Source: a virus
Reading direction: 5' to 3' (one strand)
Virus genome (UHGV): UHGV-0121358
DNA length: 54,213 bases
Shown here: in pieces, positions 9,660 through 42,820 of the stretch
Layout: each line of letters opens with the position of its first letter
Numbering within the stretch: the stretch's first letter is position 1
Notes under the pieces: generated by a model
Seen by the model: the letters and a program-made list of their open reading frames with translations, nothing else
The model's database searches: none
What the model was told of the DNA's origin: nothing
Position numbers and translations under genes: made by a program

Positions 9660-9757
9660 AAAACCCCCATAAGTCACATTTTGTATATATCTTTACGCGC
9701 CTCTACGCGAAAAATGAGATCTTAATCACAATGATTATAGCTAGTTTACAAAATGGC

Positions 9758-9786
9758 TTCACATAGTGCGCAACAAGATGTATATA
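9758..9786 (+). promoter_or_regulatory. sigma70-like promoter for second plus-strand moron cassette
   Basis: -35 TTCACA, 17-nt spacer, -10 TATATA; immediately preceded by the recurrent motif TACAAAATGG (9747-9756). Confidence 0.35.
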
Positions 9787-9827
9787 GAAAGCAAGAAGAA
9801 AAGCAGTACCAACGAAGGAGGCCAAAA

Positions 9828-9983
9828 ATGAAACGCTATGTAGTGGTAATGCTGAACAACGCATTCGAACAAGTGGAAATAGCAATCGTTAAGGGCTTCG
9901 ACGACGCATTCAAATACGGTCAATTCATGATGAATGCAAAAGAAGATGAATACCGTGATTTCTTCCTGAAGGCACTCAACTAA
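9828..9983 (+). CDS. hypothetical small protein
   Basis: Track ORF 9753..9983; in-frame ATG at 9828 with strong AAGGAGG SD 7 nt upstream. Confidence 0.5.
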   Translation: MKRYVVVMLNNAFEQVEIAIVKGFDDAFKYGQFMMNAKEDEYRDFFLKALN

Positions 9984-10000
9984 GGATGATGGGGTGAGTT

Positions 10001-10255
10001 ATGAAACTGGTAGCGATTGATAAAAACCTGAAAGTACAGAAAAACGCACAAGACAGGATTATCAAGAAAGGGAAGGAACTGCTTAAAGCATTTTTGAAGA
10101 AAGAGGCGCGCCCCAAAAAGTTACGTGATGGTTATGGCTTTAAATTCGACATCAACCCTGACTGGAGGCTGTTTAGCGAAGACCTAAAAGTCTGGTTAAT
10201 TATCGATCATCTGGAATATAACAGGCACTGTGGAGTCAAAGGGGTGCATAAGTGA
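10001..10255 (+). CDS. hypothetical protein
   Basis: Track ORF; GGGGTGAG SD; basic, no recognised motif. Confidence 0.5.
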   Translation: MKLVAIDKNLKVQKNAQDRIIKKGKELLKAFLKKEARPKKLRDGYGFKFDINPDWRLFSEDLKVWLIIDHLEYNRHCGVKGVHK

Positions 10256-10364
10256 GGTGGGACATGGAGGACGATAAATTCACCTGGCGGGAGATCTGGA
10301 ATATTTGGTTGGTGATGTTCGGCAGTGGTTACGTCGCACGTAACGGAAGATTATAGGAGGAAAA

Positions 10365-10550
10365 ATGATTATTGACGAAACAGAGTTATGTTACGGAGTT
10401 AGGTTAGATCTTGATGAGGATGGTCGGCTATGGATAACCGAACTCATGGGGACTGACACCCTCGTAATTGACAAATCGCAGGCGACGCAACTTATCGCCG
10501 GGCTTCAAAAATTTATAGATGGCACATTTGAGAACGATCAGGAGGATTAA
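10365..10550 (+). CDS. hypothetical small acidic protein
   Basis: Track ORF; strong TAGGAGGA SD. Confidence 0.5.
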   Translation: MIIDETELCYGVRLDLDEDGRLWITELMGTDTLVIDKSQATQLIAGLQKFIDGTFENDQED

Positions 10551-10552
10551 CA

Positions 10553-10840
10553 ATGGATTTAACCGTCATTGGTCACGCACTGGCTGCGGCGGCTATGCAG
10601 GTTGTTATCGGCCTGCTTACTGGTGATTATCTCACTGGCGGCCTGATTGGATGTACATTCTTTTTTGCACGCGAACACACGCAGGCTGAATATCGTTACA
10701 TAGCGGAATTTTGCGGTGGAAAACGGGAAAGAATGCCGTGGTATGGCGGATTATTACCTAAAGCATGGAATATGGCTAGCGTTTGCGACTTCGCCGCACC
10801 TGTATTCCTGTGCTGTTTGATTTATATTCTCACCATGTAA
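10553..10840 (+). CDS. hypothetical membrane protein
   Basis: Track ORF; CAGGAGGA SD; hydrophobic N- and C-terminal segments. Confidence 0.5.
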   Translation: MDLTVIGHALAAAAMQVVIGLLTGDYLTGGLIGCTFFFAREHTQAEYRYIAEFCGGKRERMPWYGGLLPKAWNMASVCDFAAPVFLCCLIYILTM

Positions 10841-10844
10841 AATA

Positions 10845-10865
10845 AAGGCCGCTTATAGCGGCCTT
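10845..10865. terminator. bidirectional terminator hairpin between moron cassette and tape-measure gene
   Basis: Stem AAGGCCGC / GCGGCCTT with loop TTATA; T-rich flank on the minus strand after the tape-measure stop (10870) and moderately T-rich on plus. Confidence 0.55.
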
Positions 10866-10869
10866 AGTG

Positions 10870-13215
10870 TTATTTGCGGCGCGGTTGCAACATCCCGCCA
10901 GGTCTTTGCGATTCCCTTGTTATCATCTTCATTGCTACACGTTCCATTGTTGATTCAAGTCTGCGGCTGTCTTCTTCGCTAAATCCGTTTGTGGTTTGAA
11001 TACTGATACTGACAGGCATACTAAAACCGCCACCGCCGCCAATATCACGACCAGGAATAACCCTGCCGTTCTCGCCTGGGATCATATATTGGTTGCCGTT
11101 AGACGTCTGGAATAGCTCCGGCCTGTTGTGTTCCCCTACGCGGTACATATTGCCACCAATGACGCTACCACCATTAAAGCGACCGCCGCCGAAAATTGAC
11201 GTAGCCAGCGACATGATCGCAGTGAGCGCAGCCGAACCAGCCGCCGCCCAGCTACCGCCAGTTGATGCAGCCGTTGCCGCCGCCGCCGGGGCCGCCGCCG
11301 CCGCGATGCTTCCCTGAGCGGCAACCGCGCTTGCCGTTGTACTTGCTTGAGTTGCCTTGCTTTGTGTTTCCATCATGATCTGATCTGCTATCCAGTCGGC
11401 TGCTATATCAGAAAGTCTGTTGCCAATATTCCCTAGTATATTGCTCCCTAAGTTAGCAAAAACATCGCTCAATGATTGAGTACCGTTAAGCAGGCCGACA
11501 AGCGCATTGCTCATGCCACCTTTAAGGCCATTAACGCAATCACCGATCAGGCCGTTTGTCTGGCTTTGCGCCTGCCATTGCTCCCATTTCAGATCGCGGA
11601 TCTGTTGCTCATAGGCTAACAATGCCTGTTTCTGTTGCGCTTCGGTAGCGCCCAGGTCGATAAGCATTTGCTTACGGACGGCCCATTCATTTTGTACCTG
11701 CTGAATAGGGTCAACCTCGCCTTTAAGCTGATTCATCGGGCTTACTATTTGCGCCCATTTATCACGCAATTCATCTACCGGAATTTGGGCTAATTCTTCC
11801 TTCAGTTCCTTACCTATCCCTTTTTGCGCGGCGCGGTACTCAAGGAGGGTGATTTTACCCTGGGCGAATGCAGCATCAATGGCCTTGCCGTTCTCTAACG
11901 CTTTGCGCATGGCGGCGGCGTCTTTATTGTACTGGTCAGAAACGCTTATACCCTTGTCACCAAGCGTATCCTCTTTGCTTTTCTTGCTGCCACTCTTCTT
12001 ACCCTTTTTAGGCTTATCAACTGGCTTGTCGAATCCGGTGATCTTGCCGTCGTTGGCTTCTGCCTGTTTCTGCATAAACTCATCATAAGCGGCAGTCGCG
12101 TTTTTAATGTCGTTTGCAAAAGTCATGACTTTACCGACTGTAGGGCCGAATTTCTTCTCATTGTTGCTATTTAGTTCTTCCTTGCGCTTATCTACAACCT
12201 CCTTCATCCATTTGTAGGCGTCCATAAGTGCCTTGATTGGCATCACCATTGCGATGATCTTCTCTGCCACCTCGCCAGCCTTCACAGCCACATCATCAAA
12301 CATGTCGATGAATTCGCCACCAGCCGTTTTGAGTGTATCGAAGCAGGTTTTAGCGAATTTAGCGCCCTCACCTAACCCCTTAACGCCTTTTGTGATTAAG
12401 TCGATAGCTGAGACTACGCCATCTGATACGCCGAAAAGATCATCAAGCTGTTCAACAAGACCCATGATTTCGACTTTAAGCTCATTGATAGCCATGCCGG
12501 ATGTGCGCGGCAACTGAGCAAACTGCTCGTTTGTTTCCTGCGTAGCCGCCTGGATTGCGTTAACCATCCTTTCTGCCGTGATCTTGCCGTCCAGCATTTC
12601 GGCGCGGAACTGGCCCATAGATAACCCCATCTGACGGGCCATTGTCTGTACGATGGTCGGGGTGTTTTCAAGTAGGCTGTTAAATTCTTCAGCACGCAGC
12701 ACGCCGCCGTCTATAGACTGGCGGAACTGGCGCATAGAGTTAGACATCTGTTCCGCTGATGCGCCGCCTAACGCCCCCATTTTCTGAATAGTGCCAACCA
12801 GGTTAAGTAATTGCCCTTCCGTAGCTGACGTGTTCTTCAGTGAGATGGCAAGACCTTGCCATAGCTCGCCAGTATCCTTCAGGCTTTGCCCCGTTTCCCT
12901 GGATATTGCTTTCAGGCCGTCGAAAACCCGTCCGGCGGACTCCGCATCGCCCGTAAGCATTTTGATTTTTACGCGAAGCATTTTTGCTTGCTCCGCCATA
13001 TCCATAAATTGGCGCACAGCCTCGGCAGCAATTAGCAAATGGATAACCCTGGTCAGTGCTTTGATGGATGTTTTCAGGGTGTTTACCTGGCGGTCAGCCT
13101 GTTTTGCGCCGCGCTCTATACGGTCAAAGGCCTGGTCTGCCTGTCGTTGTGCAACGAGAAGTTGACCAGTTTTTGCATCAACTTCGTAATAAATTGTACC
13201 TACACTGGTAGCCAT
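10870..13215 (-). CDS. tail tape measure protein
   Basis: Track ORF, 781 aa, largely alpha-helical with Ala/Gly-rich stretches; located upstream of M-L-K-I-J. Confidence 0.85.
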   Translation of the reverse strand: MATSVGTIYYEVDAKTGQLLVAQRQADQAFDRIERGAKQADRQVNTLKTSIKALTRVIHLLIAAEAVRQFMDMAEQAKMLRVKIKMLTGDAESAGRVFDGLKAISRETGQSLKDTGELWQGLAISLKNTSATEGQLLNLVGTIQKMGALGGASAEQMSNSMRQFRQSIDGGVLRAEEFNSLLENTPTIVQTMARQMGLSMGQFRAEMLDGKITAERMVNAIQAATQETNEQFAQLPRTSGMAINELKVEIMGLVEQLDDLFGVSDGVVSAIDLITKGVKGLGEGAKFAKTCFDTLKTAGGEFIDMFDDVAVKAGEVAEKIIAMVMPIKALMDAYKWMKEVVDKRKEELNSNNEKKFGPTVGKVMTFANDIKNATAAYDEFMQKQAEANDGKITGFDKPVDKPKKGKKSGSKKSKEDTLGDKGISVSDQYNKDAAAMRKALENGKAIDAAFAQGKITLLEYRAAQKGIGKELKEELAQIPVDELRDKWAQIVSPMNQLKGEVDPIQQVQNEWAVRKQMLIDLGATEAQQKQALLAYEQQIRDLKWEQWQAQSQTNGLIGDCVNGLKGGMSNALVGLLNGTQSLSDVFANLGSNILGNIGNRLSDIAADWIADQIMMETQSKATQASTTASAVAAQGSIAAAAAPAAAATAASTGGSWAAAGSAALTAIMSLATSIFGGGRFNGGSVIGGNMYRVGEHNRPELFQTSNGNQYMIPGENGRVIPGRDIGGGGGFSMPVSISIQTTNGFSEEDSRRLESTMERVAMKMITRESQRPGGMLQPRRK

Positions 13216-13257
13216 GATTTAACCTCATGCAAAAATGTGATCTGTGTATCTATTTTA

Positions 13258-13297
13258 TACAAAATGGCTTTACTTCAACGACTCCATTTTGTATAAG
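13258..13297 (+). promoter_or_regulatory. promoter-like region with inverted copies of recurrent motif (TACAAAATGG ... CCATTTTGTA)
   Basis: Perfect 10-bp inverted repeat (13258-13267 / 13284-13293) bracketing -35 TTTACT (13269-13274); -10 TATAAG (13292-13297) after a 17-nt spacer; upstream of lipoprotein gene. Confidence 0.45.
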
Positions 13298-13342
13298 GAA
13301 GCCAAAGGGAAAGGTCAGTAAATCAAGTTAGCGTGGTGGGTT

Positions 13343-14002
13343 ATGAAACGGTTAGCAAAAGTGGCAATGATTGCGGCGGTATTGGGTCTGGTTGGTTGCA
13401 ATGAGGATAATGAAAAAGCGCCTATAGTGACCAATCAAGAACAACAAGCATTAGCAGAGAAAAATGCTAAATGGCTTGCAGAACAACAAGCAAAACAAGC
13501 CGCATACGATGCACAGTTAGAAAAAGAAAATGCTGGTAAACAGTGGCTTGTAGTTGAAAGAAAAGATGATATGCAGGACGCAAAAAACGTATTCCTTTTT
13601 GTGAAAGCAGAACAATTCAGCGGAAGTCTTGATGCTTTCCCGACACTGAAGGCACAGGATAAGAATAAACCGGTATTAACAATCGCTTGCCAGGGTAATA
13701 AAACAAAAATGTTCGTAGCATGGTCACACCATGTAACTGACGCCGGGGACACTACTTATATTAACTACCGGATCGGCGTTCACAAAGCTGTAGCTACTGA
13801 GTGGGGGCGGTCAACTAATTATAAAGCTCTTGGATTATGGGATGGCAAAAAAGCCATCCCAATGATTAAAAAAATGGTTAACGAAAAACAATTCATCATT
13901 GAAGTAGTGCCGGAAGCTGGCGACATTGAGAAAGCAGTGTTTAACATTGATGGTCTTTATAACCACATCGACAAAGTGAAAAACGCTTGCAACTGGAATT
14001 AA
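13343..14002 (+). CDS. lipoprotein, function unknown
   Basis: Track ORF; signal peptide with lipobox LVGC (MKRLAKVAMIAAVLGLVGC); opposite strand to flanking tail genes. Confidence 0.7.
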   Translation: MKRLAKVAMIAAVLGLVGCNEDNEKAPIVTNQEQQALAEKNAKWLAEQQAKQAAYDAQLEKENAGKQWLVVERKDDMQDAKNVFLFVKAEQFSGSLDAFPTLKAQDKNKPVLTIACQGNKTKMFVAWSHHVTDAGDTTYINYRIGVHKAVATEWGRSTNYKALGLWDGKKAIPMIKKMVNEKQFIIEVVPEAGDIEKAVFNIDGLYNHIDKVKNACNWN

Positions 14003-14012
14003 GGGGTAAATC

Positions 14013-14387
14013 ATGAAAAACATAATCAAAGCGGCTCTCATTGGTGTTATGGCTTTAGCTCTTACAGGGTGCGCAAGATCAACTGATTTCGTTAAGTTAG
14101 CTGATAAAAAATTGCAAGTTGGAATGACTTGTGAGCAAGTGAATAAAATAATGGGGGAACCACAAAGAATCGAGCATGACGGTAATTATAGTTATCACGT
14201 ATGGTATTCAGTAACCAGCACGATAGGATTTACTTACATGGATGTTGAAGAATTATCCCCTTCAAGGGTTATCGCAAAGTTTGATAACTGCATCCTAAAA
14301 GAATGGAAAGATCGCAGTAAGGCAAAGTCTGTATACAATACAATCACACACAGTTCACCAGGTACAGCAATTAAAGATTTCAATTAG
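14013..14387 (+). CDS. lipoprotein with BamE/SmpA-OmlA-like segment
   Basis: Track ORF; lipobox LTGC; GMTCEQVNKIMGEP resembles the BamE-type motif (pattern recognition only). Confidence 0.6.
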   Translation: MKNIIKAALIGVMALALTGCARSTDFVKLADKKLQVGMTCEQVNKIMGEPQRIEHDGNYSYHVWYSVTSTIGFTYMDVEELSPSRVIAKFDNCILKEWKDRSKAKSVYNTITHSSPGTAIKDFN

Positions 14388-14401
14388 CAAAACGCCCTGA
14401 T

Positions 14402-15088
14402 CTACCGGGCTTTTTCTTGCTCACGATTTTTCATTCTTTCTAGTGCCTTTTTAGCGGCCTCCATTTGCTCGTCATAAGCACGTTTATTTATGTGAATGTT
14501 TGGCTTGCTTCTCTCGTTTCTTTCGTCTGGCGGCGTTTTAGCGCGTACAGCGGCCCTATATCCGGTCATTGTCATATTCCATGCTTCCGATTCTGACAAG
14601 CCCAGGTGAGCAACGGCAGAATAAACGAATTCCAGCACGTTAAAAGTAGGCTTATATTCCCCTTCCCGGATCTCTCCGGCGTCTTCTTCCGGCCCGTCAC
14701 CGATTAAGCCGTGGTACATGCAATGCTGCGCCAGCGTGATAACGTCACTGGTAGGCATCAGTCCTGGTCTTAGCCGTAACTTGCCGGAAGGAGTAAACCT
14801 ACATTCGCCTAATAGCGTGCCTATTTCGTCGTCTGAGCAACATTTCAGGATGTGCATGGACGTTTGCACCATTTCACCATAACACCGCGCCATAATGCGA
14901 TTGCGAAGGTCTGGATCCGCTGGCAATCGTGATGGATATTTGCCACCGTGTATGGTTGCGAAGTATTCGACCAGTTCGCTGTCACTGCCGATTTTAGCCA
15001 TTGCAGCGAAGCAGGGATTAAACACGTACCGCCTGCCGTCTACCACCGCCGCAAATTGTCCCGTTCGAACATGGATCATAGCTGTCAC
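14402..15088 (-). CDS. putative tail assembly chaperone (between tail tube and tape measure)
   Basis: Track ORF; assignment by position only. Confidence 0.4.
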   Translation of the reverse strand: MTAMIHVRTGQFAAVVDGRRYVFNPCFAAMAKIGSDSELVEYFATIHGGKYPSRLPADPDLRNRIMARCYGEMVQTSMHILKCCSDDEIGTLLGECRFTPSGKLRLRPGLMPTSDVITLAQHCMYHGLIGDGPEEDAGEIREGEYKPTFNVLEFVYSAVAHLGLSESEAWNMTMTGYRAAVRAKTPPDERNERSKPNIHINKRAYDEQMEAAKKALERMKNREQEKAR

Positions 15089-15133
15089 CTTAAAAGAAAG
15101 GGGCCAGATGGCCCCGATTGTTAATATTGATTA

Positions 15134-15610
15134 TTATGCTGCTGGGATGTCGCCAACCGTCACCTTGCCAGCACTTGAACACTCAATGGACCAGGTGGAA
15201 ACGTCGTCGTTAGGGTCTTCTTCTTTAAAGGAAGTGCAAAGAAACGGACCTTCAGTCACATCAGCCGGGGAAACAATTTTAAGCCAAACATATGGTTGCG
15301 ATCCGGTTGTTTCGCCTGGGTTAATAACGTGGCGTTTAAGTGCCTTCTGATTATGAATTTCTTCAGTACGGGATACGCCGTCACCTGAGAAAGAAACAGA
15401 TTTGTAAGTGACAAGTGATTCTTTGGTGTAGTCTGCTGATTTATCAGCGGTGGCGTCTGCGGTTTCCCATTCTACGGAAAGCGTTTTGCCGCGCATCATG
15501 CCTAACGCTTTATAAGAGCCGTCTTCAGGTTTCACGTTAGGACAAGCGATAGCGTAGAATACAGCAACGTCGCGGCCTAAAAACGCGCCTTTTTCGCAAG
15601 TCTGAGACAT
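15134..15610 (-). CDS. major tail (tube) protein
   Basis: Track ORF, 158 aa, between head-tail joining genes and chaperone/tape measure; beta-rich composition. Confidence 0.6.
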   Translation of the reverse strand: MSQTCEKGAFLGRDVAVFYAIACPNVKPEDGSYKALGMMRGKTLSVEWETADATADKSADYTKESLVTYKSVSFSGDGVSRTEEIHNQKALKRHVINPGETTGSQPYVWLKIVSPADVTEGPFLCTSFKEEDPNDDVSTWSIECSSAGKVTVGDIPAA

Positions 15611-15623
15611 GTTTAATTACCTC

Positions 15624-16010
15624 TTATCTGGATATGATGGTTTGAAAAGCTACGGTAAAAATAAAGCGCCCTTCTCTTGTCTGCATCGCAGGAATAGCGC
15701 CAACTGGCTTCATGTGTGTAATTTTATCAGTTTTATATTCTGTTAACATACTTTGACGGATGGCGTCGGCAAGGTCTTCCACTTCACTGATATTTGCATC
15801 ATTACGCGCTGAAATAACCAGGATGCGGAAATAATCACGGGTTATTGCTTCTTCACCAGCCGCGCCGCCGTTCTGCTGGATCACGATGTATCTGTCATTA
15901 TTCGAATTACTTCGCTCATTCCAGAAACGGGCCTGCAAAATATAGCCCTCATCGTATCCGTGAGACTGTATCCAGTCTCTTATATTGTCGTAGACTTCGC
16001 TGCGTTTCAT
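15624..16010 (-). CDS. tail completion / tail terminator-like protein
   Basis: Track ORF; position in head-tail joining block. Confidence 0.45.
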   Translation of the reverse strand: MKRSEVYDNIRDWIQSHGYDEGYILQARFWNERSNSNNDRYIVIQQNGGAAGEEAITRDYFRILVISARNDANISEVEDLADAIRQSMLTEYKTDKITHMKPVGAIPAMQTREGRFIFTVAFQTIISR

Positions 16011-16447
16011 ACTTTGTAACCTTCTACAATCTCTTTATAAATATCGTCTGCGTTGTTTGGATCTTCGAATGCCTTGCGCAAAAATTCCGGCTCCGCGTTT
16101 GGATCCCAATATTTACCTTTTCCAGTACCGCCGCCGAATTCAACCCCTTCGCTAGTCTTGCCGAAATGTTCGCGCGGCTGTCCTTTTAATTTACCTGGCA
16201 TATTGTGCACCCATTCAGCATACCTGGCCGTATATCCCAGCCGTAACTGCATACCATCCGCCGTGCTACCTATATACTGAAATTGGCTGTTAATTAAAAA
16301 ACCCGTATCAACTGGGGTCATGTTCGCCGCGAAGCCACCAGCCAGCATCCCTACTCGCCATAACACCTCATGAGTTTTCTTATCTGTGATTTCCTTTAGC
16401 TCCTGCTTTAATCGCTCCCTGACACGTTTAACACCCTTGATAGGCAT
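16007..16447 (-). CDS. HK97 gp10-family head-tail joining protein
   Basis: Track ORF; N-terminus MPIKGVKRVRERL typical of the HK97 gp10-like family as I recall it. Confidence 0.6.
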   Translation of the reverse strand: MPIKGVKRVRERLKQELKEITDKKTHEVLWRVGMLAGGFAANMTPVDTGFLINSQFQYIGSTADGMQLRLGYTARYAEWVHNMPGKLKGQPREHFGKTSEGVEFGGGTGKGKYWDPNAEPEFLRKAFEDPNNADDIYKEIVEGYKV

Positions 16448-34142: not shown

Positions 34143-34302
34143 AATGCTCTCTCCTTTTTCAGGTGATTTTTACGCATTTCAGCGTTACCGGATTTTTAAA
34201 GAGCATTTTGTTTGTTTGAAGTATACAAAACGGATACATGCGAACAAACAATAAAGCGCCATTATGTGATCCGCATCACACAATGACGCCATTTTGTAAA
34301 CA

Positions 34303-35705: not shown

Positions 35706-36056
35706 TTAACGGTATATCAAAACAGCCCGTTTCTTTCTTTGGGCTTCCTCCCGCTCCGTTAATATTTGCTCCGCTTTTAGCGCGTTATAGCTAATCAAAT
35801 CAATTAGCGTGTCTGTCGGATCTGATTTATTGCTTAAAATGGCCTCTAAACGCGCCTCCTTGAGACAAATTAGCAGATCCCATACATCAAGCGGGGTTAA
35901 ATCTGCTCCCTTCTTAGCGTTGTAAATAGTGGCTATTTTTGGCGCTGATTTTTCCTCTTTTTTGTCGTAGCCGTTTTGTTTACCTCTTTGCTCTATGGTT
36001 TCCGCTGCAAGTCTCAATAAATCTGCTGCCTTAGTCATTATCTGCACCTCTTGCAT
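35706..36056 (-). CDS. hypothetical protein
   Basis: Track ORF; overlaps 3' end of methyltransferase gene. Confidence 0.45.
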   Translation of the reverse strand: MQEVQIMTKAADLLRLAAETIEQRGKQNGYDKKEEKSAPKIATIYNAKKGADLTPLDVWDLLICLKEARLEAILSNKSDPTDTLIDLISYNALKAEQILTEREEAQRKKRAVLIYR

Positions 36057-36570
36057 ATAGCTCTTTACGTGTTATCTGCGTGAAAATACATTCATGTCTG
36101 CACCGTGGATGCCAGATCAAGAACAAGCTCCCCTTATTGTTTCCGCTTGCTGGTTTACCCGTCGCGGCATTAATAAACGCCAGCCGCCCGCGCGTGATTA
36201 ATCGGCATTCATTTGCCGTCTCCACGCCGTTCATAAACCAACTAACAGAAGTGTCGGCTGGCAATAACATTACACAGCCAATATGATTTCGGTGGTGTTC
36301 AAACGCCGCCTTATCAACGAATGGTCCCGGATTAGAATATGGTGGATTCATCCAGACATATTCACCAGGCATCGCCACCGCTCCCCACGGGTAATTAAGC
36401 GTGTTCATTTCTTCGGTTATATATCGCGGAACTAATGCATTTGCCTTGTTTGCCGCCACGTCCGCGACGAATTCGAATTCCCGATCCATTCCTCTAAAAA
36501 CAGGTTTCGGCGTCTGCCATAGGTCTTTTATTTCTTTCGGCGTATGACTGCCGCCGTAATCATTTTTCAT
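36031..36570 (-). CDS. phage N6-adenine DNA methyltransferase (Dam-like)
   Basis: Track ORF; NPPY catalytic motif (VWMNPPYSNPGPF), size ~180 aa typical of small phage Dam-type MTases. Confidence 0.7.
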   Translation of the reverse strand: MKNDYGGSHTPKEIKDLWQTPKPVFRGMDREFEFVADVAANKANALVPRYITEEMNTLNYPWGAVAMPGEYVWMNPPYSNPGPFVDKAAFEHHRNHIGCVMLLPADTSVSWFMNGVETANECRLITRGRLAFINAATGKPASGNNKGSLFLIWHPRCRHECIFTQITRKELYARGADND

Positions 36571-36580
36571 TGCGTCCCCC

Positions 36581-36814
36581 TTAGAAATAATCCTGCTCCG
36601 TCCCCCAGCGGTTATTCAGATACCCCACCAACCACACAAAACGCTCAATGCTGATTAGCGGGGCGACCTTGCGATAATGCTTGTCGAGTATCAGCCGCGT
36701 GGCTTTATCGCTGTAGCCGTTCTTCTCTACCTCCGCTTTGCAGGCCGAAAGCGCGGCGCGGGCGGCAGTCTTTACGGCGTTAAATTGCGGCTCTGACATA
36801 TTGAATAAGGCCAT
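36581..36814 (-). CDS. hypothetical protein
   Basis: Track ORF 36581..36973 truncated to ATG at 36814 (MALFNMSEPQF...). Confidence 0.4.
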   Translation of the reverse strand: MALFNMSEPQFNAVKTAARAALSACKAEVEKNGYSDKATRLILDKHYRKVAPLISIERFVWLVGYLNNRWGTEQDYF

Positions 36815-36818
36815 AGGA

Positions 36819-37070
36819 TCACCATGTGTCAGTCCAATCCGGCGCGGCAGTCCAGCAAAAACCAATGAATGCGCTAACAGCCAATAAAGCGCGGGCTGCA
36901 AAAAGAATATTCCCAATGTCGTTAAATTCAGGAAGCGACCACGTAATAAACATAGCCCCCAGCATAATAACACCGATAACAGTCAGGGCCGCCAGGAAAA
37001 CAAAAAGCGTAGCCAAAAGCCACGCCCCCAACCAGTTAAAAAAGCTCTTAAGCATTTTAAACGTCCTCAA
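36819..37070 (-). CDS. hypothetical membrane protein
   Basis: Track ORF; three hydrophobic segments. Confidence 0.4.
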   Translation of the reverse strand: MRTFKMLKSFFNWLGAWLLATLFVFLAALTVIGVIMLGAMFITWSLPEFNDIGNILFAARALLAVSAFIGFCWTAAPDWTDTW

Positions 37071-37260
37071 TTACCCCGCCTTTCACGCGCTCTTTAATAT
37101 CCCATACGTGAGGCTTGCATATTTCTTGATAGTAGTGATCCGGCCTGCTGCCGAAATACCATTTGCCATCCATATAAAAATAAACGCCAGAAAAATTTCC
37201 TGGCGCTGCCTTTGTTGCTGCTTCTGGAATTTTCCATTCCATGTAATGTTTAAATTTCAT
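37057..37260 (-). CDS. hypothetical protein
   Basis: Track ORF. Confidence 0.4.
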   Translation of the reverse strand: MKFKHYMEWKIPEAATKAAPGNFSGVYFYMDGKWYFGSRPDHYYQEICKPHVWDIKERVKGGVIEDV

Positions 37261-37444
37261 GAGTTTTTAAATAACCTCTTCTGAATGCTTTGATGTAAAT
37301 TCCTAATCTCCTTATATGTTGAACGCCATCAATAAGACGTATTAAATAAATCGCTCCTTTTGCGTCAGATACAAATCTACACCCGAAACCAATGCCAACT
37401 AATTTTAGGCTATCAGGTATTCGATAATCAGTTTCTTGTTCCAT
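37250..37444 (-). CDS. hypothetical protein
   Basis: Track ORF. Confidence 0.35.
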   Translation of the reverse strand: MEQETDYRIPDSLKLVGIGFGCRFVSDAKGAIYLIRLIDGVQHIRRLGIYIKAFRRGYLKTHEI

Positions 37445-37542
37445 ACATTACCTCATATGGTATTCAATAAACCACCTGATAAACAGGTATAAGGCAATAA
37501 AACCCCAGAAACAGCACATATAAAACAATGTATCGTCCATAA

Positions 37543-37818
37543 TTAAGCCTCAATAACACCGTAATCAAACGTGCCTAAATACCGTTCGATACTTACAACC
37601 TCAATACCATCAATACACCGTTTCCACACAGACACCTGGCTTTCATTTTCTCTGAAGTGCATATTAGAAAGCACTTCATCGGCTGGATAGTCTTTCCCGG
37701 CGACGTAGGCATCGTGACCTACGCCACCTTCTACGCAATAAAGCATCAATTCGCGTTCCATTTTTGCTTCCTCCGCACCGTAAACCTTTTGATTTCGGCT
37801 TACAAAACGGATATACAA
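37543..37818 (-). CDS. hypothetical protein
   Basis: Track ORF; start uncertain. Confidence 0.4.
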   Translation of the reverse strand: MYIRFVSRNQKVYGAEEAKMERELMLYCVEGGVGHDAYVAGKDYPADEVLSNMHFRENESQVSVWKRCIDGIEVVSIERYLGTFDYGVIEA

Positions 37819-37860
37819 TCACAATACAAAATGTATATTTATGTGATCGGAATTACTCGG

Positions 37861-38481
37861 TTAATGCAGTACACGTTTTCCCTGTTCAGGCGTCGGCTGT
37901 GCGTTTTTCCGTGCGTAATTAAGCACAGCGATAGCCGCCTGTACGCCGAAATCATTTGCACGCATATCATTGCCAACCATTTCACCGTAAAACAATGGCA
38001 TGAGCGCTTTTACTTCTTCCTCTTTGTGGCCTTCCTCAATGCATTTCTGCAACATCTTAACCTCAAAGATATTTTTCATCAGGACGCGCATAGAATGCAG
38101 TGAAACACTACCAAGCTGTTCCTTGTTCAACGGGAAAATGACAGCACTTCCGAACGCGAGCGGATCAACCTCTTCCGGCACTGGTACGCGTCCGAATTCT
38201 TCCTCCATGCGCTTCACAAAAGTAAGAGAGAATACATAACGCGCTACCGATGTTTTTTCTTCCATACTTAAAGACACGTAATCGCGGATTGACGCACCCA
38301 TCACAATATCAACAACCTGTAGCGCCAGATTCAAATCAGCGTCATACGCGCCAGCTTCCATATCTTTCAATACTTCGTGATAATCTTTAATTTCCACTTC
38401 GTGAAAGTTTGCATCATCTGTATAGCGAGTGATCAACATACCTTCATTACCGAGAGAGTAAGCTGTTTTGATGTCGTTCAT
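37861..38481 (-). CDS. hypothetical protein (206 aa)
   Basis: Track ORF. Confidence 0.5.
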   Translation of the reverse strand: MNDIKTAYSLGNEGMLITRYTDDANFHEVEIKDYHEVLKDMEAGAYDADLNLALQVVDIVMGASIRDYVSLSMEEKTSVARYVFSLTFVKRMEEEFGRVPVPEEVDPLAFGSAVIFPLNKEQLGSVSLHSMRVLMKNIFEVKMLQKCIEEGHKEEEVKALMPLFYGEMVGNDMRANDFGVQAAIAVLNYARKNAQPTPEQGKRVLH

Positions 38482-38494
38482 GATATTTATCCTT

Positions 38495-38827
38495 TTATAG
38501 TGGGTGATGCCATTTCATTTCAGTTTCTGAATTAAACGGGTTTCCTTCGCTTGAAAGGAATAAATCACGCTCCCGTTTCAGTTCTTCCGGGCTTATTTCT
38601 ATTTCATCAATCTGACCGAACGATCCCGGCATCATTCGTTTTAAATCAGATAGCGGACGCATAAGGCCGCAGCCGCGTAACAGCATATCGACCGCGAATT
38701 GTCTACGTCCGCCAGCGTCATTGAAGCGCCGCGCCCAGGGCACAACCACGATCCGGCGTTCGAATTCGATAAATAGTGATAGCTTGTTTGTTTCGCTATC
38801 ATATGCTTTATGGAATTTAATTTTCAT
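38495..38827 (-). CDS. hypothetical protein
   Basis: Track ORF. Confidence 0.45.
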   Translation of the reverse strand: MKIKFHKAYDSETNKLSLFIEFERRIVVVPWARRFNDAGGRRQFAVDMLLRGCGLMRPLSDLKRMMPGSFGQIDEIEISPEELKRERDLFLSSEGNPFNSETEMKWHHPL

Positions 38828-39008
38828 TTAACACCTCAACATATTGTTCAAGATGCCATTGACCCACCTCATCATCTTCCTCGTCAAATAATGTTACCTG
38901 ACCACCAGGCCCAAAAGAAAAGGCAGCTATGATAAATTTATACCCATACCACGTACGGATCTTTTCGCCGCCTTTTAAATCTTTAACTTTTACCAATTTT
39001 ATAGCCAT
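38817..39008 (-). CDS. hypothetical protein
   Basis: Track ORF. Confidence 0.4.
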   Translation of the reverse strand: MAIKLVKVKDLKGGEKIRTWYGYKFIIAAFSFGPGGQVTLFDEEDDEVGQWHLEQYVEVLNEN

Positions 39009-39271
39009 ACGCCGAACATCCCATTCAGTCCGGCGAACAATTTCCGCCAGTGGTCTTCAACATAAGCCCGGAACGGCTTAACGCGAACGTTACGGGCCTT
39101 CAGTTCGATCTTGTCAAAGAAGCGCGGCTCTATAATTGTTCCGTCCAGATATTTAACCAGGATCGGACGCTCAAGATCGTTATATGTCTTATTCAGCACA
39201 ACCAGACCAGGGTCTTTACGGTATTCCGGGAGCACGACCAGATCACCCGTTTTGATATTCATGAATGGCAT
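38999..39271 (-). CDS. hypothetical protein
   Basis: Track ORF 38999..39274 (GTG) with ATG at 39271; ATG overlaps stop of upstream mini-ORF. Confidence 0.45.
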   Translation of the reverse strand: MPFMNIKTGDLVVLPEYRKDPGLVVLNKTYNDLERPILVKYLDGTIIEPRFFDKIELKARNVRVKPFRAYVEDHWRKLFAGLNGMFGVWL

Positions 39272-39387
39272 CACATCACCCCGCCGATATAGCTAATAAT
39301 TGCCGCAGTCGCGCCAGCTATTACCACCATGAAGACGAAAGCGACCACATAGAAAACAGCCTTGACAGTATTTTTGTCGACTCGCAT
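39271..39387 (-). CDS. possible 38-aa membrane mini-protein (MRVDKNTVKAVFYVVAFVFMVVIAGATAAIISYIGGVM)
   Basis: Own translation; GAGG SD 6 nt upstream; below track cutoff. Confidence 0.3.
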   Translation of the reverse strand: MRVDKNTVKAVFYVVAFVFMVVIAGATAAIISYIGGVM

Positions 39388-39394
39388 ATAAACC

Positions 39395-39502
39395 TCACAT
39401 GTCAGTAATCAGCTTAACAATCGCCACAGTGATATAGAGTGACGCACTAAGGTAAACAGCCGCCACAGCAACGGCGGCGGATAACATTGCAATCTTTTTC
39501 AT
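39395..39502 (-). CDS. possible 35-aa membrane mini-protein (MKKIAMLSAAVAVAAVYLSASLYITVAIVKLITDM)
   Basis: Own translation; GGAGGGTGG SD; ATG overlaps stop of upstream gene (ATGA). Confidence 0.3.
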   Translation of the reverse strand: MKKIAMLSAAVAVAAVYLSASLYITVAIVKLITDM

Positions 39503-39750
39503 TTGCCACCCTCCGCAATGAACTTATCAAGCCATTTGTTATTAGCCAGCCGTTCGGCATCTTCGCCAAATGATTTACGTTCGCTTAATTCCTTGCGCGT
39601 CGGGAAAGGCCATTTATCGTGCCAGCCCGCCGACGTTTCGAATTCATAGTTATCGCCACCGAATTCGACAAATACATCACCATCGTCTGAGGTTTCCGCA
39701 GTCCCCTGAAAACCGCGCCCGTTATTTTCGCTTAATGTTGTAGCTGTCAT
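39499..39750 (-). CDS. hypothetical acidic protein
   Basis: Track ORF. Confidence 0.45.
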   Translation of the reverse strand: MTATTLSENNGRGFQGTAETSDDGDVFVEFGGDNYEFETSAGWHDKWPFPTRKELSERKSFGEDAERLANNKWLDKFIAEGGK

Positions 39751-39762
39751 GGTAATACCTCA

Positions 39763-40041
39763 TTAATCGTTAATAACCTTGCCCATACGCCCGCGATATT
39801 TGCGCATTCGTGGATCAACATATTCAGGCCACTGCATATCATCAGTTTTCTGTAGCGGGTAAGAACTCGCTCGCCAGTTGTCAAACCAGATTTGCTTCGC
39901 GTACAGGTCACTAAATCTTTTCGCCATTCGATCCGCTGCCGTGCCGCATAAAAAAAGCCCGCGATCGATTTGATCGCGGGCTTCTTTTAATACTTGCTCT
40001 TTTGTTCGTGGTTGCGGTGGCGGTTTTAGACAATCACTCAT
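39763..40041 (-). CDS. hypothetical protein
   Basis: Track ORF 39763..40173 truncated to ATG at 40041, 16 nt after the SSB stop. Confidence 0.4.
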   Translation of the reverse strand: MSDCLKPPPQPRTKEQVLKEARDQIDRGLFLCGTAADRMAKRFSDLYAKQIWFDNWRASSYPLQKTDDMQWPEYVDPRMRKYRGRMGKVIND

Positions 40042-40057
40042 CGCTAACACATTGATT

Positions 40058-40477
40058 CTAAAAAGGAATATCGTCGTCGAAGTCCATCGGAGGCGGATTA
40101 TTCCCGTTATTATTCTGCTGCTGCGGCGGCGCTTTCTGCTGCTGTCCTTGCTGCTGGCCTTGTTGGTTAACATTCATGAATTCAAATTCATTAACCGCCA
40201 CTTCTACCGCAGTCCCCTTCGTGCCGTCGTTCCGGTCATATTGCCGAACATCCAGGCGACCGCTTACCACTATTTTTCCACCCTTGCGGATATGTGGCGC
40301 TAATTTTTCCGCACGCTCACCAAATACCAGGCAAGTGATCCACATTGTCCGCTTGTTATCACCGTAGCCATTCGTTACAGCTAACGGAAAACTACCAATC
40401 GCTTTACCGTTTTGCGTGTAGCGAACTTCCATGTCGTTTCCGATATTCCCGCCCAGCGTAATTGAATTCAAACTCAT
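40058..40477 (-). CDS. ssb: single-stranded DNA-binding protein
   Basis: Track ORF; OB-fold-like N-terminal region, Gln/Gly-rich linker and acidic C-terminal tip DFDDDIPF characteristic of SSB. Confidence 0.85.
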   Translation of the reverse strand: MSLNSITLGGNIGNDMEVRYTQNGKAIGSFPLAVTNGYGDNKRTMWITCLVFGERAEKLAPHIRKGGKIVVSGRLDVRQYDRNDGTKGTAVEVAVNEFEFMNVNQQGQQQGQQQKAPPQQQNNNGNNPPPMDFDDDIPF

Positions 40478-41121
40478 TAACCCATCTCCCCGTTAAGCTC
40501 TGCGACCCGGATGTCATAAACATCTTTTGCCTTGATTCGATGTTCCGATCCTTCCGGTAGTAATTTCCAGCATTTGCCAAATATTTCACGCAGCTTGTTA
40601 GCGTCCTGCGCTTTCGCTGCTGCATCACAGAAACGTGCTAATACTTCATCAGGATTTGGCGGCGCTTTCTTCTGCTGCGGTTGTTGTTTTGGTGGGTTTT
40701 TCTGTTGTCGCGGCTGCTGGCCTGTCTGCTTCGCGTAAGCATCAGTATCAGGATCGCGAGCATCATCTATACAGAATAAACCGTTCAAAGCATATTTACG
40801 CGCGTAACTTGATGTTGCTCCTGTTAGCTGGCTGGCGTCCATACCCTTCTTGTTTTCTTCCTCCCTGGCATAAGCAGTTACCGCTATTACGTCTTCACCG
40901 TCGCTTAGCGTCGCCGTTGCTTTCACATAATAGCGATTGCCGATCAGGACAATTTCATCACTAACAGTCAGCGTGATATTTTGAAGCAGTGGTTTAACCG
41001 CCTCTAAAATATCCTCCGCCGACCTGTAATTATATCCACCAAAATTATTACGCTGATTTTTCGGCGCGTTCAGCGTTTGCTGAATCGTCCATAGCTTTTT
41101 ATGTAACTCTGTTTTCACCAT
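40477..41121 (-). CDS. erf: Erf single-strand annealing recombinase
   Basis: Track ORF; blocks LNAPKNQ, EDILEAVKPLL, DEIVLIGNRYYVKATAT, AREEENKKGMDASQLTGATSSYARKYALNGLF closely match my recollection of P22 Erf. Confidence 0.85.
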   Translation of the reverse strand: MVKTELHKKLWTIQQTLNAPKNQRNNFGGYNYRSAEDILEAVKPLLQNITLTVSDEIVLIGNRYYVKATATLSDGEDVIAVTAYAREEENKKGMDASQLTGATSSYARKYALNGLFCIDDARDPDTDAYAKQTGQQPRQQKNPPKQQPQQKKAPPNPDEVLARFCDAAAKAQDANKLREIFGKCWKLLPEGSEHRIKAKDVYDIRVAELNGEMG

Positions 41122-41267
41122 TTAATCTCCCGTGCTGTTAACACTATGTATAAGGCTTTATTCGCGGCGCTCCACATTTCGGCATCGTGAAGCATTTCCG
41201 CTACTGCCAGTTTGAATTGAAGCGCCTGAATAACCATAATGTCATCTCCGGATGTTTACATTTTGTA

Positions 41268-41558
41268 TTAATGGTAGCGGACTTTATCCAGGGGTTTTTC
41301 CCCTAAATGGCGTGGTTGCGTTGCGTGGTAGTAGCTGCCGCTTTCATTTTCCGTATACCATTTTACTGATCCTTTGCGACGTTCTTTAATGCTATTTGGT
41401 TTGCATCTTTCCTCGTTTGCAAATCGAATAGCTTTATCCACATTGTCTGTTTTATTGATTGCAGGTGATGATTTTCTTTCGTTTTCTCTTTTTATCCTTC
41501 TGCGTTCCCTGGCATTCATTTTGCTATCACATTTACCATATATAATTGTAACGCTCAT
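41268..41558 (-). CDS. N: N-like transcription antiterminator (P22 gene 24-like)
   Basis: Track ORF; GGAG SD; N-terminus MSVTIIYGK...NARERRRIKRE with arginine-rich motif resembles P22 gp24 (MTVITYGK...AKTRRHERRR); nut-like site upstream. Confidence 0.7.
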   Translation of the reverse strand: MSVTIIYGKCDSKMNARERRRIKRENERKSSPAINKTDNVDKAIRFANEERCKPNSIKERRKGSVKWYTENESGSYYHATQPRHLGEKPLDKVRYH

Positions 41559-41614
41559 AATCTGATCTCCGTATATCCTTGATGATACTTAATAAAAAAT
41601 CATCTTCGTTAATT

Positions 41615-41652
41615 GCCGCACTTCCAGCGGCTGACCAGATTGTTAATGAGCG
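41615..41652 (-). promoter_or_regulatory. putative nutL (boxA-like CGCTCATTAA plus boxB-like hairpin)
   Basis: On minus-strand transcript: CGCTCATTAA (41652-41643), 11-nt spacer, hairpin GCCGC-UGGAAGU-GCGGC (41631-41615), between pL candidate and N start. Confidence 0.4.
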
Positions 41653-41906
41653 GCTTAACATCTTTCAACTAATCCCGCAATCATCGCCGTTCCCGGCGTG
41701 ACCTTGCTCACTCCAAGCAAGCTGACTCGTCGCCTTGCGTGCGGTTTCGTGGGGGATGTAACGCTTTAAACACCCCATGCGCCTTGTTATCAGTGCCGCT
41801 TTCGGTCCCCCATCGGGGAGTTACTCCACGGTTGACAAGGTGTTAAGCCTGATTTTTAAAGTGCCAGGAAGTTGCTTTTGTTACCTGCGCCCTTCCTTTG
41901 ACTCGC

Positions 41907-41935
41907 AATATACGCCCCGTAAAACATCGAGTCAA
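41907..41935 (-). promoter_or_regulatory. candidate early-left promoter pL
   Basis: Minus strand -35 TTGACT (41935-41930), 17-nt spacer, -10 TATATT (41912-41907); recurrent motif TACAAAATGG abuts the -35 on its upstream side. Confidence 0.45.
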
Positions 41936-42035
41936 TCCATTTTGTATACTTTTTTAAAATATTTTATATGCCATTGATATTTAAATAATAAATAACGTTT
42001 TCTGTTTACGTTTTGGTGTTTTCCAGGCAAAGAAA

Positions 42036-42053
42036 AGCCGCCATTCGGCGGCT
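42036..42053 (-). terminator. rho-independent terminator after repressor gene
   Basis: Stem AGCCGCC / GGCGGCT with loop ATTC; T-rich tract follows on the minus strand; 6 nt downstream of cI stop. Confidence 0.6.
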
Positions 42054-42058
42054 AATGT

Positions 42059-42706
42059 TTATGGCAGGTTTACGATCTTCGCATCAACCACCACGCCTAT
42101 AATTTTTGATTCTGGATTCATAGGGATTGGCGGATACAGCGGATTGAGCGAACGTAAAAGCCTTTGACCTCCATCAATAATCAACTGTTTAAACGTCGGT
42201 ATCTGCCCTTCCTCAAGCTGGGCTATAACCAGTTTGCCGTCAATAGCTGGCGCGTGCGGGTCCACAAGTATCATCGTCCCCGCCGGGATGCTCAACCCCT
42301 GCGGCGCGTTCATTGATTCACCTTTGGCAACCAGCCAGTAACTGTCATCTGAACAAATAACGCTAGTCGTAACGTGTCGTAATGCTGAACGCCTTGCGTC
42401 ATCCATATTGTTTACTGTGTCCTTCCAGTCAATAACCGGGTAACTACCTAAATCACGCGGCGGCACGGCCTGAAGTGTATTAGAAACAGAATCATCAATG
42501 ACCATGCCATCATGTGTAACAGTAAACTGCCGACGACCAAGCTCGCGCATAATCCGCGCAATATCTTCAAGATTTGGCTCTCGGCGACCGTTCAGCCAGT
42601 GTGACAGGCCGCCTTTAGTTATCCCCATACGATCCGCGAGCGAATCCTGGCTCATGCCCTGCGCCCGCATGAGCTGCTTTGCTAAGTCATACCATTTTGT
42701 TTTCAT
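42059..42706 (-). CDS. cI: cI-type repressor (HTH_XRE N-terminus, LexA/S24 peptidase-like C-terminus)
   Basis: Track ORF; N-terminal HTH (QDSLADRMGITKGGLSHWLNG), C-terminal S24-like region with conserved Ser (GESM) and Lys (PTFKQL); divergent from replication operon. Confidence 0.85.
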   Translation of the reverse strand: MKTKWYDLAKQLMRAQGMSQDSLADRMGITKGGLSHWLNGRREPNLEDIARIMRELGRRQFTVTHDGMVIDDSVSNTLQAVPPRDLGSYPVIDWKDTVNNMDDARRSALRHVTTSVICSDDSYWLVAKGESMNAPQGLSIPAGTMILVDPHAPAIDGKLVIAQLEEGQIPTFKQLIIDGGQRLLRSLNPLYPPIPMNPESKIIGVVVDAKIVNLP

Positions 42707-42736
42707 GTCGCTACCCTATAACCTCAAAAAGTTTGA

Positions 42737-42820
42737 TGCAAGTCACAAAACGTGTATTTTAAGCCTTGATCTTAAAATTCCATTTTGTAAACTTGCAGAC
42801 AAGGTAAGGCCATACTTGCA
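42737..42820. promoter_or_regulatory. candidate operator region: three copies of heptamer ACTTGCA/TGCAAGT
   Basis: TGCAAGT at 42737-42743; ACTTGCA at 42791-42797 and 42814-42820, each followed by CAAGG; in the cI / right-operon intergenic region. Confidence 0.35.

Follow-up and report, generated by a model that had tools for sequence, protein, structure and literature searches.

Why does one short sequence recur beside promoters scattered over the genome of a temperate phage? In virus genome UHGV-0121358 (the whole analysed stretch of 54,213 nt is called the window here), the 10-mer TACAAAATGG or its complement CCATTTTGTA occurs in seven exact copies, as compared to 0.20 expected from 100 shuffles, none of which reached seven. 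An original prediction, made from the sequence alone, had listed six of these copies (9747+, 13258+, 13284-, 34289-, 41937- and 42780-), all of them exact, and missed the seventh (46912-46921, minus strand); it proposed that the 10-mer is an activator site or upstream promoter element shared by immunity-region promoters and accessory ("moron") cassettes. We consider it likely, with a probability of about three in four, that the 10-mer is instead the central part of a 17-bp operator recognized by Rep, the gp15 homologue and lambda-CI-like repressor of this prophage, which would regulate these promoters in the manner proposed below.

The window DNA is 84-94% identical to that of Escherichia phages mEp021, mEp010, mEp515 and MagusPhagus, and judged by sequence the window is from an Escherichia coli temperate phage of the mEpimmI group. 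These temperate siphoviruses have been reported to match lambdoid phages in frequency in the human gut; the gp15 product of mEp021, Rep021, is a CI-like repressor that confers immunity, and its Gp17 is an N-like antiterminator that works through three nut sites, of which nutL precedes rep, nutR1 precedes gp17 and nutR2 belongs to the nin region (PMC11893012). The repressor, the antiterminator and the nut sites were thus known before; the mEpimmI literature consulted, including PMC11893012, contains no map of operators or promoters, and the regulatory annotation of the mEp021 GenBank record consists only of ribosome-binding sites and terminators, with no operators. The proposed binder is encoded in the window by rep (42059-42706, minus strand), whose product has HTH_3 and Peptidase_S24 matches in Pfam.

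The enrichment of the 10-mer stands up to an exhaustive k-mer check. In an unbiased scan against a Markov background it is the top-ranked 10-mer, and TACAAAATG is the top 9-mer of the window (13 copies versus 0.76 expected, P~2e-12); with one mismatch allowed, TACAAAATGG has 22 copies compared to 5.6 expected. Common variants of the core are TACAAAACGG (34224 and 37801), TACAAAATGT (9676, 37825, 41258 and 45774) and CACAAAAYG (1432, 1466 and 42745). The extension of the flanks to CCATTTTGTAWA(C) had been correctly read, and the full site was recognized because the operators of distant Rep homologues were compared: it is a 17-bp pseudo-palindrome, GTWTAC-AAAAY-GKnnnn (ideal form GTATAC-AAAAT-GTATAC), made up of a strong half GTWTAC, a conserved A-rich spacer of 5 bp and a degenerate second half that is ideally GTWWAC. 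The 10-mer covers the spacer together with the adjoining three bases of the strong half and two of the weak half. In the window there are 10 exact matches to the pattern GTWTACRWWWYGK versus 0.28 expected, or 25 versus 8.1 with one mismatch. Two-fold pseudo-symmetry is present but weak at most sites, which have only one good half; the best copies are GTATACAAAATGTAAAC (45771-45787) and GTATACAAAACGGATAC (34221-34237), which match the half-site form GTWTAC-N5-GTWWAC at 12/12 and 11/12 positions, respectively. Flanking bases alone carry little information, and a simple palindromic operator search of two immunity-region gaps found nothing shared beyond the motif itself.

Altogether ~19 sites spread over 45 kb, at ~8 promoter regions, and they lie in intergenic DNA. 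A crude open reading frame (ORF) caller left 11% of the window non-coding, and 12 of the 19 sites have their centres there; the remaining sites are under ORF calls that are doubtful by comparison with the mEp021 annotation (four spurious ORFs and three over-extended starts). Site orientations are mixed, with direct and inverted pairs at 24-71 bp.

What reads these sites is indicated by the homologues of the repressor. Rep is 90-100% identical to the Rep proteins of mEpimmI phages and is homologous over its full length to the lambda repressor (structure 3bdn, E 1.4e-20, residues 15-208). We examined more distant homologues (38-55% identity) at loci L046-48 and in Citrobacter (L161), Enterobacter (L163), Serratia (L166), Vibrio (L165) and Shewanella (L164); these, like a sister phage group described below, each have three core sites, TAC-N5-GTA or TAC-N5-GG, in a canonical repressor/cro intergenic region. 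At L046-48 the repressor is 38% identical to Rep, with which it shares the N-terminal arm MKTKWYDLAK; its recognition helix is similar, and the gap to the divergent Cro-like gene holds AAGTATACATAAAGTAGA, AAGTATACAGATTGTCTG and AGGTATACATAACGTATA. The Citrobacter sites are TAATACATAACGTAC, TAATACAAAATGGAAC (in the middle) and AAATACGGATTGTAAT, those of Vibrio include TACATAATGG and TACACAATGG, and Enterobacter and Serratia have the same three-site arrangement between rep and cro. In Shewanella the site is TGTAC-N5-GTACA and the recognition helix TPGGMGHW instead of TKGGLSHW; the site changes there together with the recognition helix, in a sample of seven homologue groups that is too small for statistics. 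Because these homologous repressors have sites with the same core in the repressor/cro region, Rep is the likely binder.

A sister phage group, found via P0012, has the same genome plan and a Rep that is 55% identical with an identical helix-turn-helix (ITKGGLSHWLNGRREP). Its top k-mers are CCATTTTGT and TTTTGTATA, it has nine cores versus 0.7 expected per 20 kb, and the same site abuts the -35 element of its early promoter, as it does in the window. In place of the gp14-like gene that mEpimmI phages have at the cro position, this group (L158-L160) has a 75-aa ordinary HTH_3 gene. Because the motif is kept there without the gp14-like gene, it follows the DNA-binding domain of the repressor rather than the gene at the cro position, and it does not track host or tail genes either.

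Positional conservation points the same way. Among 75 related loci, the 44 from the immunity region (taken from IMG/VR) have 346 cores versus 25.8 expected and the 31 from the tail region 133 versus 16.7, in both cases at conserved positions, and MagusPhagus has 17 cores at equivalent places. In alignments of these relatives the site is invariant and the neighbouring spacers vary. The core TACAAAAYG is absent from all 49 out-group phages whose minor-tail genes are related (826 kb of DNA at 51% GC, where 12.5 copies are expected); many of these loci (L082-L130) are probably interrelated, so that the absence may not represent true avoidance. The suggestion that one factor, possibly the repressor, is common to the immunity-region and tail-cassette promoters is therefore supported, as the motif tracks the Rep lineage; the host protein offered as an alternative factor is unlikely on this distribution.

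In the immunity region the sites overlap the early promoters and the promoter of the repressor itself. The transcription start was taken, as a prediction, to lie 7 nt after the -10 hexamer. P_E (41907-41935, minus strand; TTGACT-17-TATATT, scanner score 10/12, predicted start ~41900) is an early promoter with nutR1 and the N-like gene (41268-41558, minus strand) downstream; the gene follows rep on the same strand, after a terminator. It carries two sites: O_E2, GTATACAAAATGGATTG (41933-41949, minus strand), contains the 10-mer at 41937 and is centred at ~-41, and O_E1, TTTTAC-GGGGC-GTATAT (41908-41924, minus strand), found in a half-site scan, is centred at ~-16, 25 bp from O_E2. Within 41907-41949 the block AAAAAGTATACAAAATG is invariant in 33 distinct relative sequences, with invariant P_E hexamers and a variable spacer; at the place of O_E1 relatives have TTTTAC or TATCAC with an invariant GTATAT. 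The original prediction had placed this promoter among "pL and pRM-side" promoters, a label that has to be given up, since the promoter comes after the rep terminator and transcribes the N-like gene. A further operator-like site, GTTTAC-GTTTT-GGTGTT (42004-42020, plus strand), lies ~112 bp upstream of the P_E start and matches GTWTACRWWWYGK exactly; CCAAAACGTAAAC is kept there in all relatives, one of which has CCAAAATGTAAAC.

On the other side of rep, the predicted promoter P_L (42766-42793, plus strand; TTGATC-16-TAAACT, predicted start ~42800) would serve nutL and the replication operon, which runs rightward from ~42934; its hexamers are conserved in relatives, with a -35 of TTGAT or TTGAC. 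The operator GTTTACAAAATGGAATT (42776-42792, minus strand, with the 10-mer at 42780) is centred at ~-16 of P_L and ~-78 of the rep start. This 10-mer does lie upstream of rep, as had been noted (74-83 nt from the ATG), but it overlaps the -10 of the replication-operon promoter and does not serve the rep promoter. Like OR2 in its position, a weaker operator (42738-42754, plus strand; minus-strand sequence ATACAC-GTTTT-GTGACT) is centred 40 bp before the rep ATG, at -54 of P_L and -40 of the rep promoter; TTTTGTGACTTGCATCAAA is invariant there in relatives, and the two sites are the arms of a 27-nt imperfect inverted repeat. The putative P_RM-like rep promoter itself (42713-42741, minus strand; TTGCAT-17-TAGGGT) would start at ~42706. 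The rep gene has no convincing Shine-Dalgarno sequence, the -10-like TAGGGT ends 6 nt before its ATG (42704-42718, minus strand), distant homologues have TATAAT 6 nt before theirs, and the rep mRNA is probably leaderless, as is that of lambda cI. We infer P_L, the rep promoter and the nin-region promoter P_R2 from their sequence and from the conservation of both hexamers in relatives, P_E being the one promoter of this set that passes the scanner.

The place of the 42776-42792 operator reads TACAGAATGG or TACATAATGG in relatives L026-L043 and in mEp021. In these relatives Rep has Leu rather than Arg at residue 26, and all of their other operators keep TACAAAATGG; the pairing may be a mere lineage marker.

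The same sites recur well outside the immunity region. A long minus-strand operon spans the recombination, nin, Q, lysis and structural genes, and just upstream of nutR2 within it is P_R2 (34220-34247, minus strand; TTGTTC-16-TATACT, 8/12, predicted start ~34213), in which TTGTT and TATACT are conserved in relatives and the intervening bases are partly variable. The near-palindromic operator GTATACAAAACGGATAC (34221-34237, plus strand) is centred at ~-16 of P_R2; relatives mostly have GTATACAAAATGGATAC there, with TATCCRTTTTGTATACT invariant. A second operator, GTTTACAAAATGGCGTC (34285-34301, minus strand, with the 10-mer at 34289), lies at ~-80, just upstream of terminator t4 (34255-34290, minus strand), which is between the two. 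This copy had been placed near the nin genes, and is indeed found between a dcm-like gene and ninF.

Three small plus-strand cassettes inside the tail region (~8219-9013, 9828-10840 and 13343-14387) are preceded by predicted promoters with sites in the same positions. P_ma (8162-8190, plus strand; TTGATC-17-TATATT, scanner score 9/12, predicted start ~8197) has the palindromic operator TTTTAC-AATAT-GTATAT (TTTTACAATATGTATAT, 8173-8189) centred at -16. P_mb (9758-9786, plus strand; TTCACA-17-TATATA, predicted start ~9793), the promoter of cassette 9828-10840, has the operator GTTTACAAAATGGCTTC (9744-9760, plus strand, 10-mer at 9747) centred at -41; across 9744-9786 relatives conserve the site, TTCAC and TGTATAYAG, with a variable spacer. 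P_mc (13269-13297, plus strand; TTTACT-17-TATAAG, predicted start ~13304), the promoter of the opposite-strand cassette 13343-14387, has both TTATACAAAATGGCTTT (13255-13271, plus strand, 10-mer at 13258), centred at -41, and TTATACAAAATGGAGTC (13280-13296, minus strand, 10-mer at 13284), centred at -16 and 25 bp from its partner; many relatives have TTATACAAAATGTATTC at the latter place. The hexamers of the three promoters originally proposed are present with 17-nt spacers (TTCACA at 9758 and TATATA at 9781; TTTACT at 13269 and TATAAG at 13292; TTGACT at 41935 and TATATT at 41912, minus strand). Their description as good promoters applies to the one at 41935, which passes the scanner, while those at 9758 and 13269 fail it, the last base of their -10 not being T; we retain these two as promoters on account of conserved hexamers and a variable spacer in relatives. 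The gap between the gp25-like and gp26-like genes holds two tandem operators, GCTTACAAAACGGATAT and CAATACAAAATGTATAT (37798-37838, plus strand), at a centre-to-centre distance of 24 bp. A plus-strand antisense promoter that the scanner placed at 37812-37839 is doubtful, as its -35 is not conserved in relatives.

The contents of two cassettes could be described from their ORFs. Cassette 9828-10840 has a 51-aa ORF, a ParE-like toxin gene (ParE_like match in Pfam) and two further ORFs. The toxin gene (10001-10255, plus strand) is preceded by the 51-aa ORF (9828-9983), which could be its antitoxin; the promoter of this cassette has only the -41 operator. Cassette 13343-14387 encodes a VasI-like protein and a small lipoprotein-like ORF (Pfam). 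The promoter/operator module at 13236-13297 is conserved and the downstream cargo differs between relatives: over 13236-13342, relatives L051-L081 have the conserved module and then at least four different cargo sequences, so that the module seems to mark a fixed slot, under regulation, in which accessory genes are exchanged. Searches of the cassette proteins with PADLOC and NCBIfam gave no defence-system matches.

Taken together, the sites stand in a regular relation to the promoters. Of the predicted promoters, five have a site centred at ~-16 and four have one at -40/-41; the doubtful promoter-like match at 37812-37839 adds one region to each count, giving six and five. The sites at -41 share 3 bp with the -35. 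Centres are separated by 25 bp at P_E and P_mc, by 24 bp at 37798-37838 and by 38 bp in the rep/P_L region. The original reading as an activator site or upstream promoter element is not borne out, since the 10-mer is part of a 17-bp operator that overlaps the -35, with equal copies at -16 (42776-42792, 34221-34237, 13280-13296 and 8173-8189). What is found is rather the set of features of a CI/Cro-type operator: an adjacent repressor with helix-turn-helix and S24 domains, a pseudo-symmetric site, overlap with early and repressor promoters, paired spacing and homologous sites beside homologous repressors. In addition, the boxB-like sequences of the window, corresponding to nutL (42871-42887, plus strand), nutR1 (41848-41864, minus strand) and nutR2 (34188-34204, minus strand) of mEp021 (GCTCTTTAAAAATCCGG twice, GCACTTTAAAAATCAGG once), are each 25-90 nt downstream of the start of an operator-bearing predicted promoter. 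The third nut site would thereby have an explanation: it would serve transcripts starting at P_R2.

From this arrangement a mechanism can be proposed, in which Rep binding and the direction of regulation at each promoter are read from site position and sequence. Rep, presumably a dimer, would occupy the predicted sites in the lysogen, and the pairs 24-25 bp apart (at P_E, P_mc and 37798-37838) would be bound cooperatively, like OR1 and OR2 of lambda. Bound at the -16 sites, Rep would stand in the way of RNA polymerase at five promoters (P_L, P_E, P_R2, P_ma and P_mc). At the -41 sites it may help fill the neighbouring -16 site; alternatively, at the rep promoter and perhaps at P_mb, it may stimulate transcription, as CI does from OR2. 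At most promoters the positions of the sites predict repression.

Some sites, 42004-42020 included, have no recognized promoter; they sit at gene junctions, several of them directly upstream of a Shine-Dalgarno sequence. The best palindrome of the window, GTATAC-AAAAT-GTAAAC (45771-45787), both strands of which match the pattern, is between two replication-operon genes. The operator GTTTACAAAATGGAATA (46908-46924, minus strand), which contains the seventh exact 10-mer at 46912, overlaps the stop codon of the gene before the helicase and is conserved in nearly all relatives. An operator-like GTTTAC-ATTTT-GTATTA (41254-41270) lies between the N-like gene and the next gene and is kept at offset +1439 in relatives; another, ATATACAAAATGTGACT (9672-9688, minus strand), is ~20 nt upstream of the start of the minor tail protein M gene. 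A weaker pair, GATCACAAAATGGTAGA (minus strand) and TTGCACAAAATGTATTT (plus strand), occupies the convergent gap between a lipoprotein gene and a tail J-like gene (1428-1477). These sites may be looping partners, roadblocks or operators of unrecognized promoters. Three genes have a similar leader, TGTAAAC..GGAG..ACAT(T/A)ATG (41223-41266, minus strand; 45771-45806 and 46912-46943, plus strand), that starts inside an operator, with the half-site 2-6 nt upstream of the Shine-Dalgarno sequence.

Several points weigh against Rep as the reader of these sites and against the mechanism proposed for it. Close relatives share most of their genes, and within the group co-occurrence with Rep alone cannot single Rep out; on operators, PMC11893012 says only that Rep021 may recognize different ones. 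Most sites are strongly asymmetric with a conserved A-tract spacer, more extreme than in lambda, and five or six are not at any recognizable promoter. P_L, P_R2 and P_RM score below the promoter-scanner threshold, and the half-site GTATAY, which is itself -10-like, overlaps the predicted -10 of promoters with a -16 site, so that the geometry is partly circular. No Cro-like HTH_3 gene is recognizable in mEpimmI phages, and without an obvious cro gene the canonical switch logic is only assumed.

An alternative main binder would be another phage protein, either an unrecognized Cro-like or antirepressor-type regulator or the product of the gp14-like gene (42934-43269, plus strand), the first gene of the rightward operon, which at the cro position encodes an O-like N-terminal winged-helix DNA-binding domain (phrog_4617). 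A second binder is expected in principle, lambdoid Cro sharing the operators of CI, and the strong asymmetry, together with direct and inverted pairs at 24-71 bp, would suit a monomer or a flexible dimer. We nevertheless think such a protein improbable as the main binder: the motif persists in the sister group, which has an HTH_3 gene instead of the gp14-like gene, distant Rep homologues of five other genera have this core between repressor and cro, and the predicted origin repeats to which a gp14-like protein might bind (GGGTCATGA x4, 43663-43703) differ in sequence. A second protein sharing the operators of Rep would moreover be normal for an immunity operator and would leave the nature of the element unchanged.

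The A/T-rich character of the motif and its location at -37 to -46 of three promoters, with sites resembling those of the cAMP receptor protein (CRP) nearby at ~-60 to -70, could suggest a promoter part directed at the host, that is, an UP element for the alpha subunit of RNA polymerase or the site of an OmpR-like or CRP-associated host regulator. The 10-mer may also resemble OmpR-site sequences (ACATTTTG). Against the host stand its absence from the 826 kb of out-group enterobacterial phages where 12.5 copies would be expected, the change of the half-site to GTAC in Shewanella together with the recognition helix, and the copies at -16 and at promoterless gene junctions. An UP element would be a degenerate A/T tract at -40 to -60 in one orientation, general to strong promoters of the host and its phages, whereas these copies are found in both orientations, and their exact identity over 10-13 bp from site to site goes well beyond the specificity that an UP element requires. 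A host-directed part is accordingly very improbable, and we give equally little credence to the idea that the copies are structural or recombinational repeats, either hairpins or cruciforms (of terminators, for example) or boundary sequences at the junctions of mosaic modules. It is true that the inverted pairs at 13250-13300, 42735-42800 and 34215-34305 fold (z -4 to -5.7), that copies lie at gene boundaries and that the 13236-13297 module is constant beside differing cargo; but single copies are unstructured (z +0.3 to +1), the 42735-42800 pair is upstream of both predicted starts and hence not transcribed from P_L or P_RM, no Rfam family matches, and the 24-25 bp centre spacing and the fixed register to -35 and -10 would be left unexplained.

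Other candidates were set aside. The motif contains an ATG, but the ensuing ORFs have just 2-10 codons, which disposes of a start-codon context or mini-ORF; the ATG at 9753 is not the cassette start, which is at 9828. As a -35 element (TTTACA) the motif has no -10 at the proper distance. Nor is it an origin iteron bound by O-like gp14/gp13 proteins: iterons would be clustered direct repeats in or beside the initiator gene, which the motif is not, and the clustered repeats at 43663-43703 are of a different sequence. A search of the literature for the 10-mer yielded nothing but primers and eukaryotic sequences of no relation to it, and a search of viral contigs for TACAAAATGG-N5..35-CCATTTTGTA found, outside mEpimmI, only isolated hairpins in unrelated AT-rich viruses.

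With Rep as the likely reader, the element is most likely an ordinary CI-type operator, to judge from its sequence, and what is unusual is its distribution, which includes accessory cassettes of the tail region. The likeness to lambda CI extends to a full-length homologous repressor (helix-turn-helix and S24 domains), 17-bp sites with one good and one degenerate half, neighbouring sites 24-25 bp apart and others over early-promoter -10 regions, a site ~40 bp upstream of the repressor start (as OR2 at PRM) and a probably leaderless repressor mRNA. The differences are a half-site of GTWTAC instead of TATCAC, a spacer that is a conserved A-tract, an orientation of rep parallel to the N-like operon with a terminator between, the lack of a recognizable cro, and ~19 sites at ~8 promoter regions over 45 kb as compared to six sites at two loci in lambda. 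Rep-clade operators in Citrobacter, Enterobacter, Serratia, Vibrio and Shewanella have the same core (including TAATACAAAATGGAAC in Citrobacter) and related recognition helices; the comparison of these prophages covers the canonical three rep/cro sites, and the Citrobacter locus also has sites at a promoter that follows rep closely.

In distribution the sites come closest to the C1 operators of phage P1 and the stoperators of mycobacteriophages. In P1 a single immunity repressor acts on many operons through dispersed, single or paired 17-bp operators, several of which are asymmetric, but C1 is not known to be related to repressors of the CI/LexA type, the operator sequence is unrelated and the prophage is a plasmid. 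The stoperators of the cluster A mycobacteriophages L5 and Bxb1 are likewise short, asymmetric and numerous, mostly in short intergenic gaps and in some cases far from promoters, and they have a single orientation relative to transcription and a monomeric two-domain repressor (PMC9283540, PMC6550527). In contrast, the sites of the window have mixed orientations and mostly stand in promoter register, and the S24 domain of their CI-like repressor, presumably a dimer, is homologous to the C-terminus of lambda CI; by orientation and repressor type they do not qualify as stoperators.

A broader reading, which we offer tentatively and consider less likely than not, is that Rep is a genome-wide prophage regulator rather than a two-locus switch. 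Rep would then repress three early promoters, each with its own nut site, and would bring the opposite-strand moron cassettes under immunity control, with P_ma and P_mc silent in the lysogen and firing on induction; through a lone -41 site it would stimulate P_mb, which has the ParE-like toxin gene in its cassette, and also the rep promoter. The junction sites at 45771, 46908, 41254 and 9672 would be high-affinity roadblocks or looping anchors, a stoperator-like function that would have evolved independently in a coliphage repressor of the lambda CI family. The census of ~19 predicted operators provides a concrete, testable wiring diagram of mEpimmI immunity, with three early promoters each paired with a nut site and an autoregulated, probably leaderless rep; the unusual part of this diagram is the apparent control of the tail accessory cassettes by the immunity repressor, where constitutive lysogenic-conversion genes might have been supposed. 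If the diagram is confirmed, expression in lysogens can no longer be taken for granted for moron-like cassettes, and dispersed repressor regulons extend to the lambda CI family.

Some minor features were also recorded. No Rfam family match and no tRNA were found in the searched sequence. Four 11-bp direct repeats, GGGTCATGA(nn), lie at 43663-43703 inside the gp13-like replication gene; they are probably origin iterons, inside the initiator gene as in lambda. CRP-like sites (TGTGA-N6-TCACA, 0-2 mismatches) are found at 8127-8142, 9715-9730 and 13236-13251, at ~-62, -70 and -60 of the three tail-cassette promoters, and at 37842-37857, beside the 37798-37838 pair. Their TGTGATC is conserved in relatives except at 9715-9730, and the tail cassettes may also respond to cAMP-CRP. 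As a signal in their own right these sites were rejected: they are not enriched overall (26 versus 23 expected), although four of the five best adjoin operators, one of the four being the stem of terminator t4. Within that stem is a CRP consensus palindrome without mismatch, TGTGATCCGCATCACA; in relatives the stem is kept but the loop varies.

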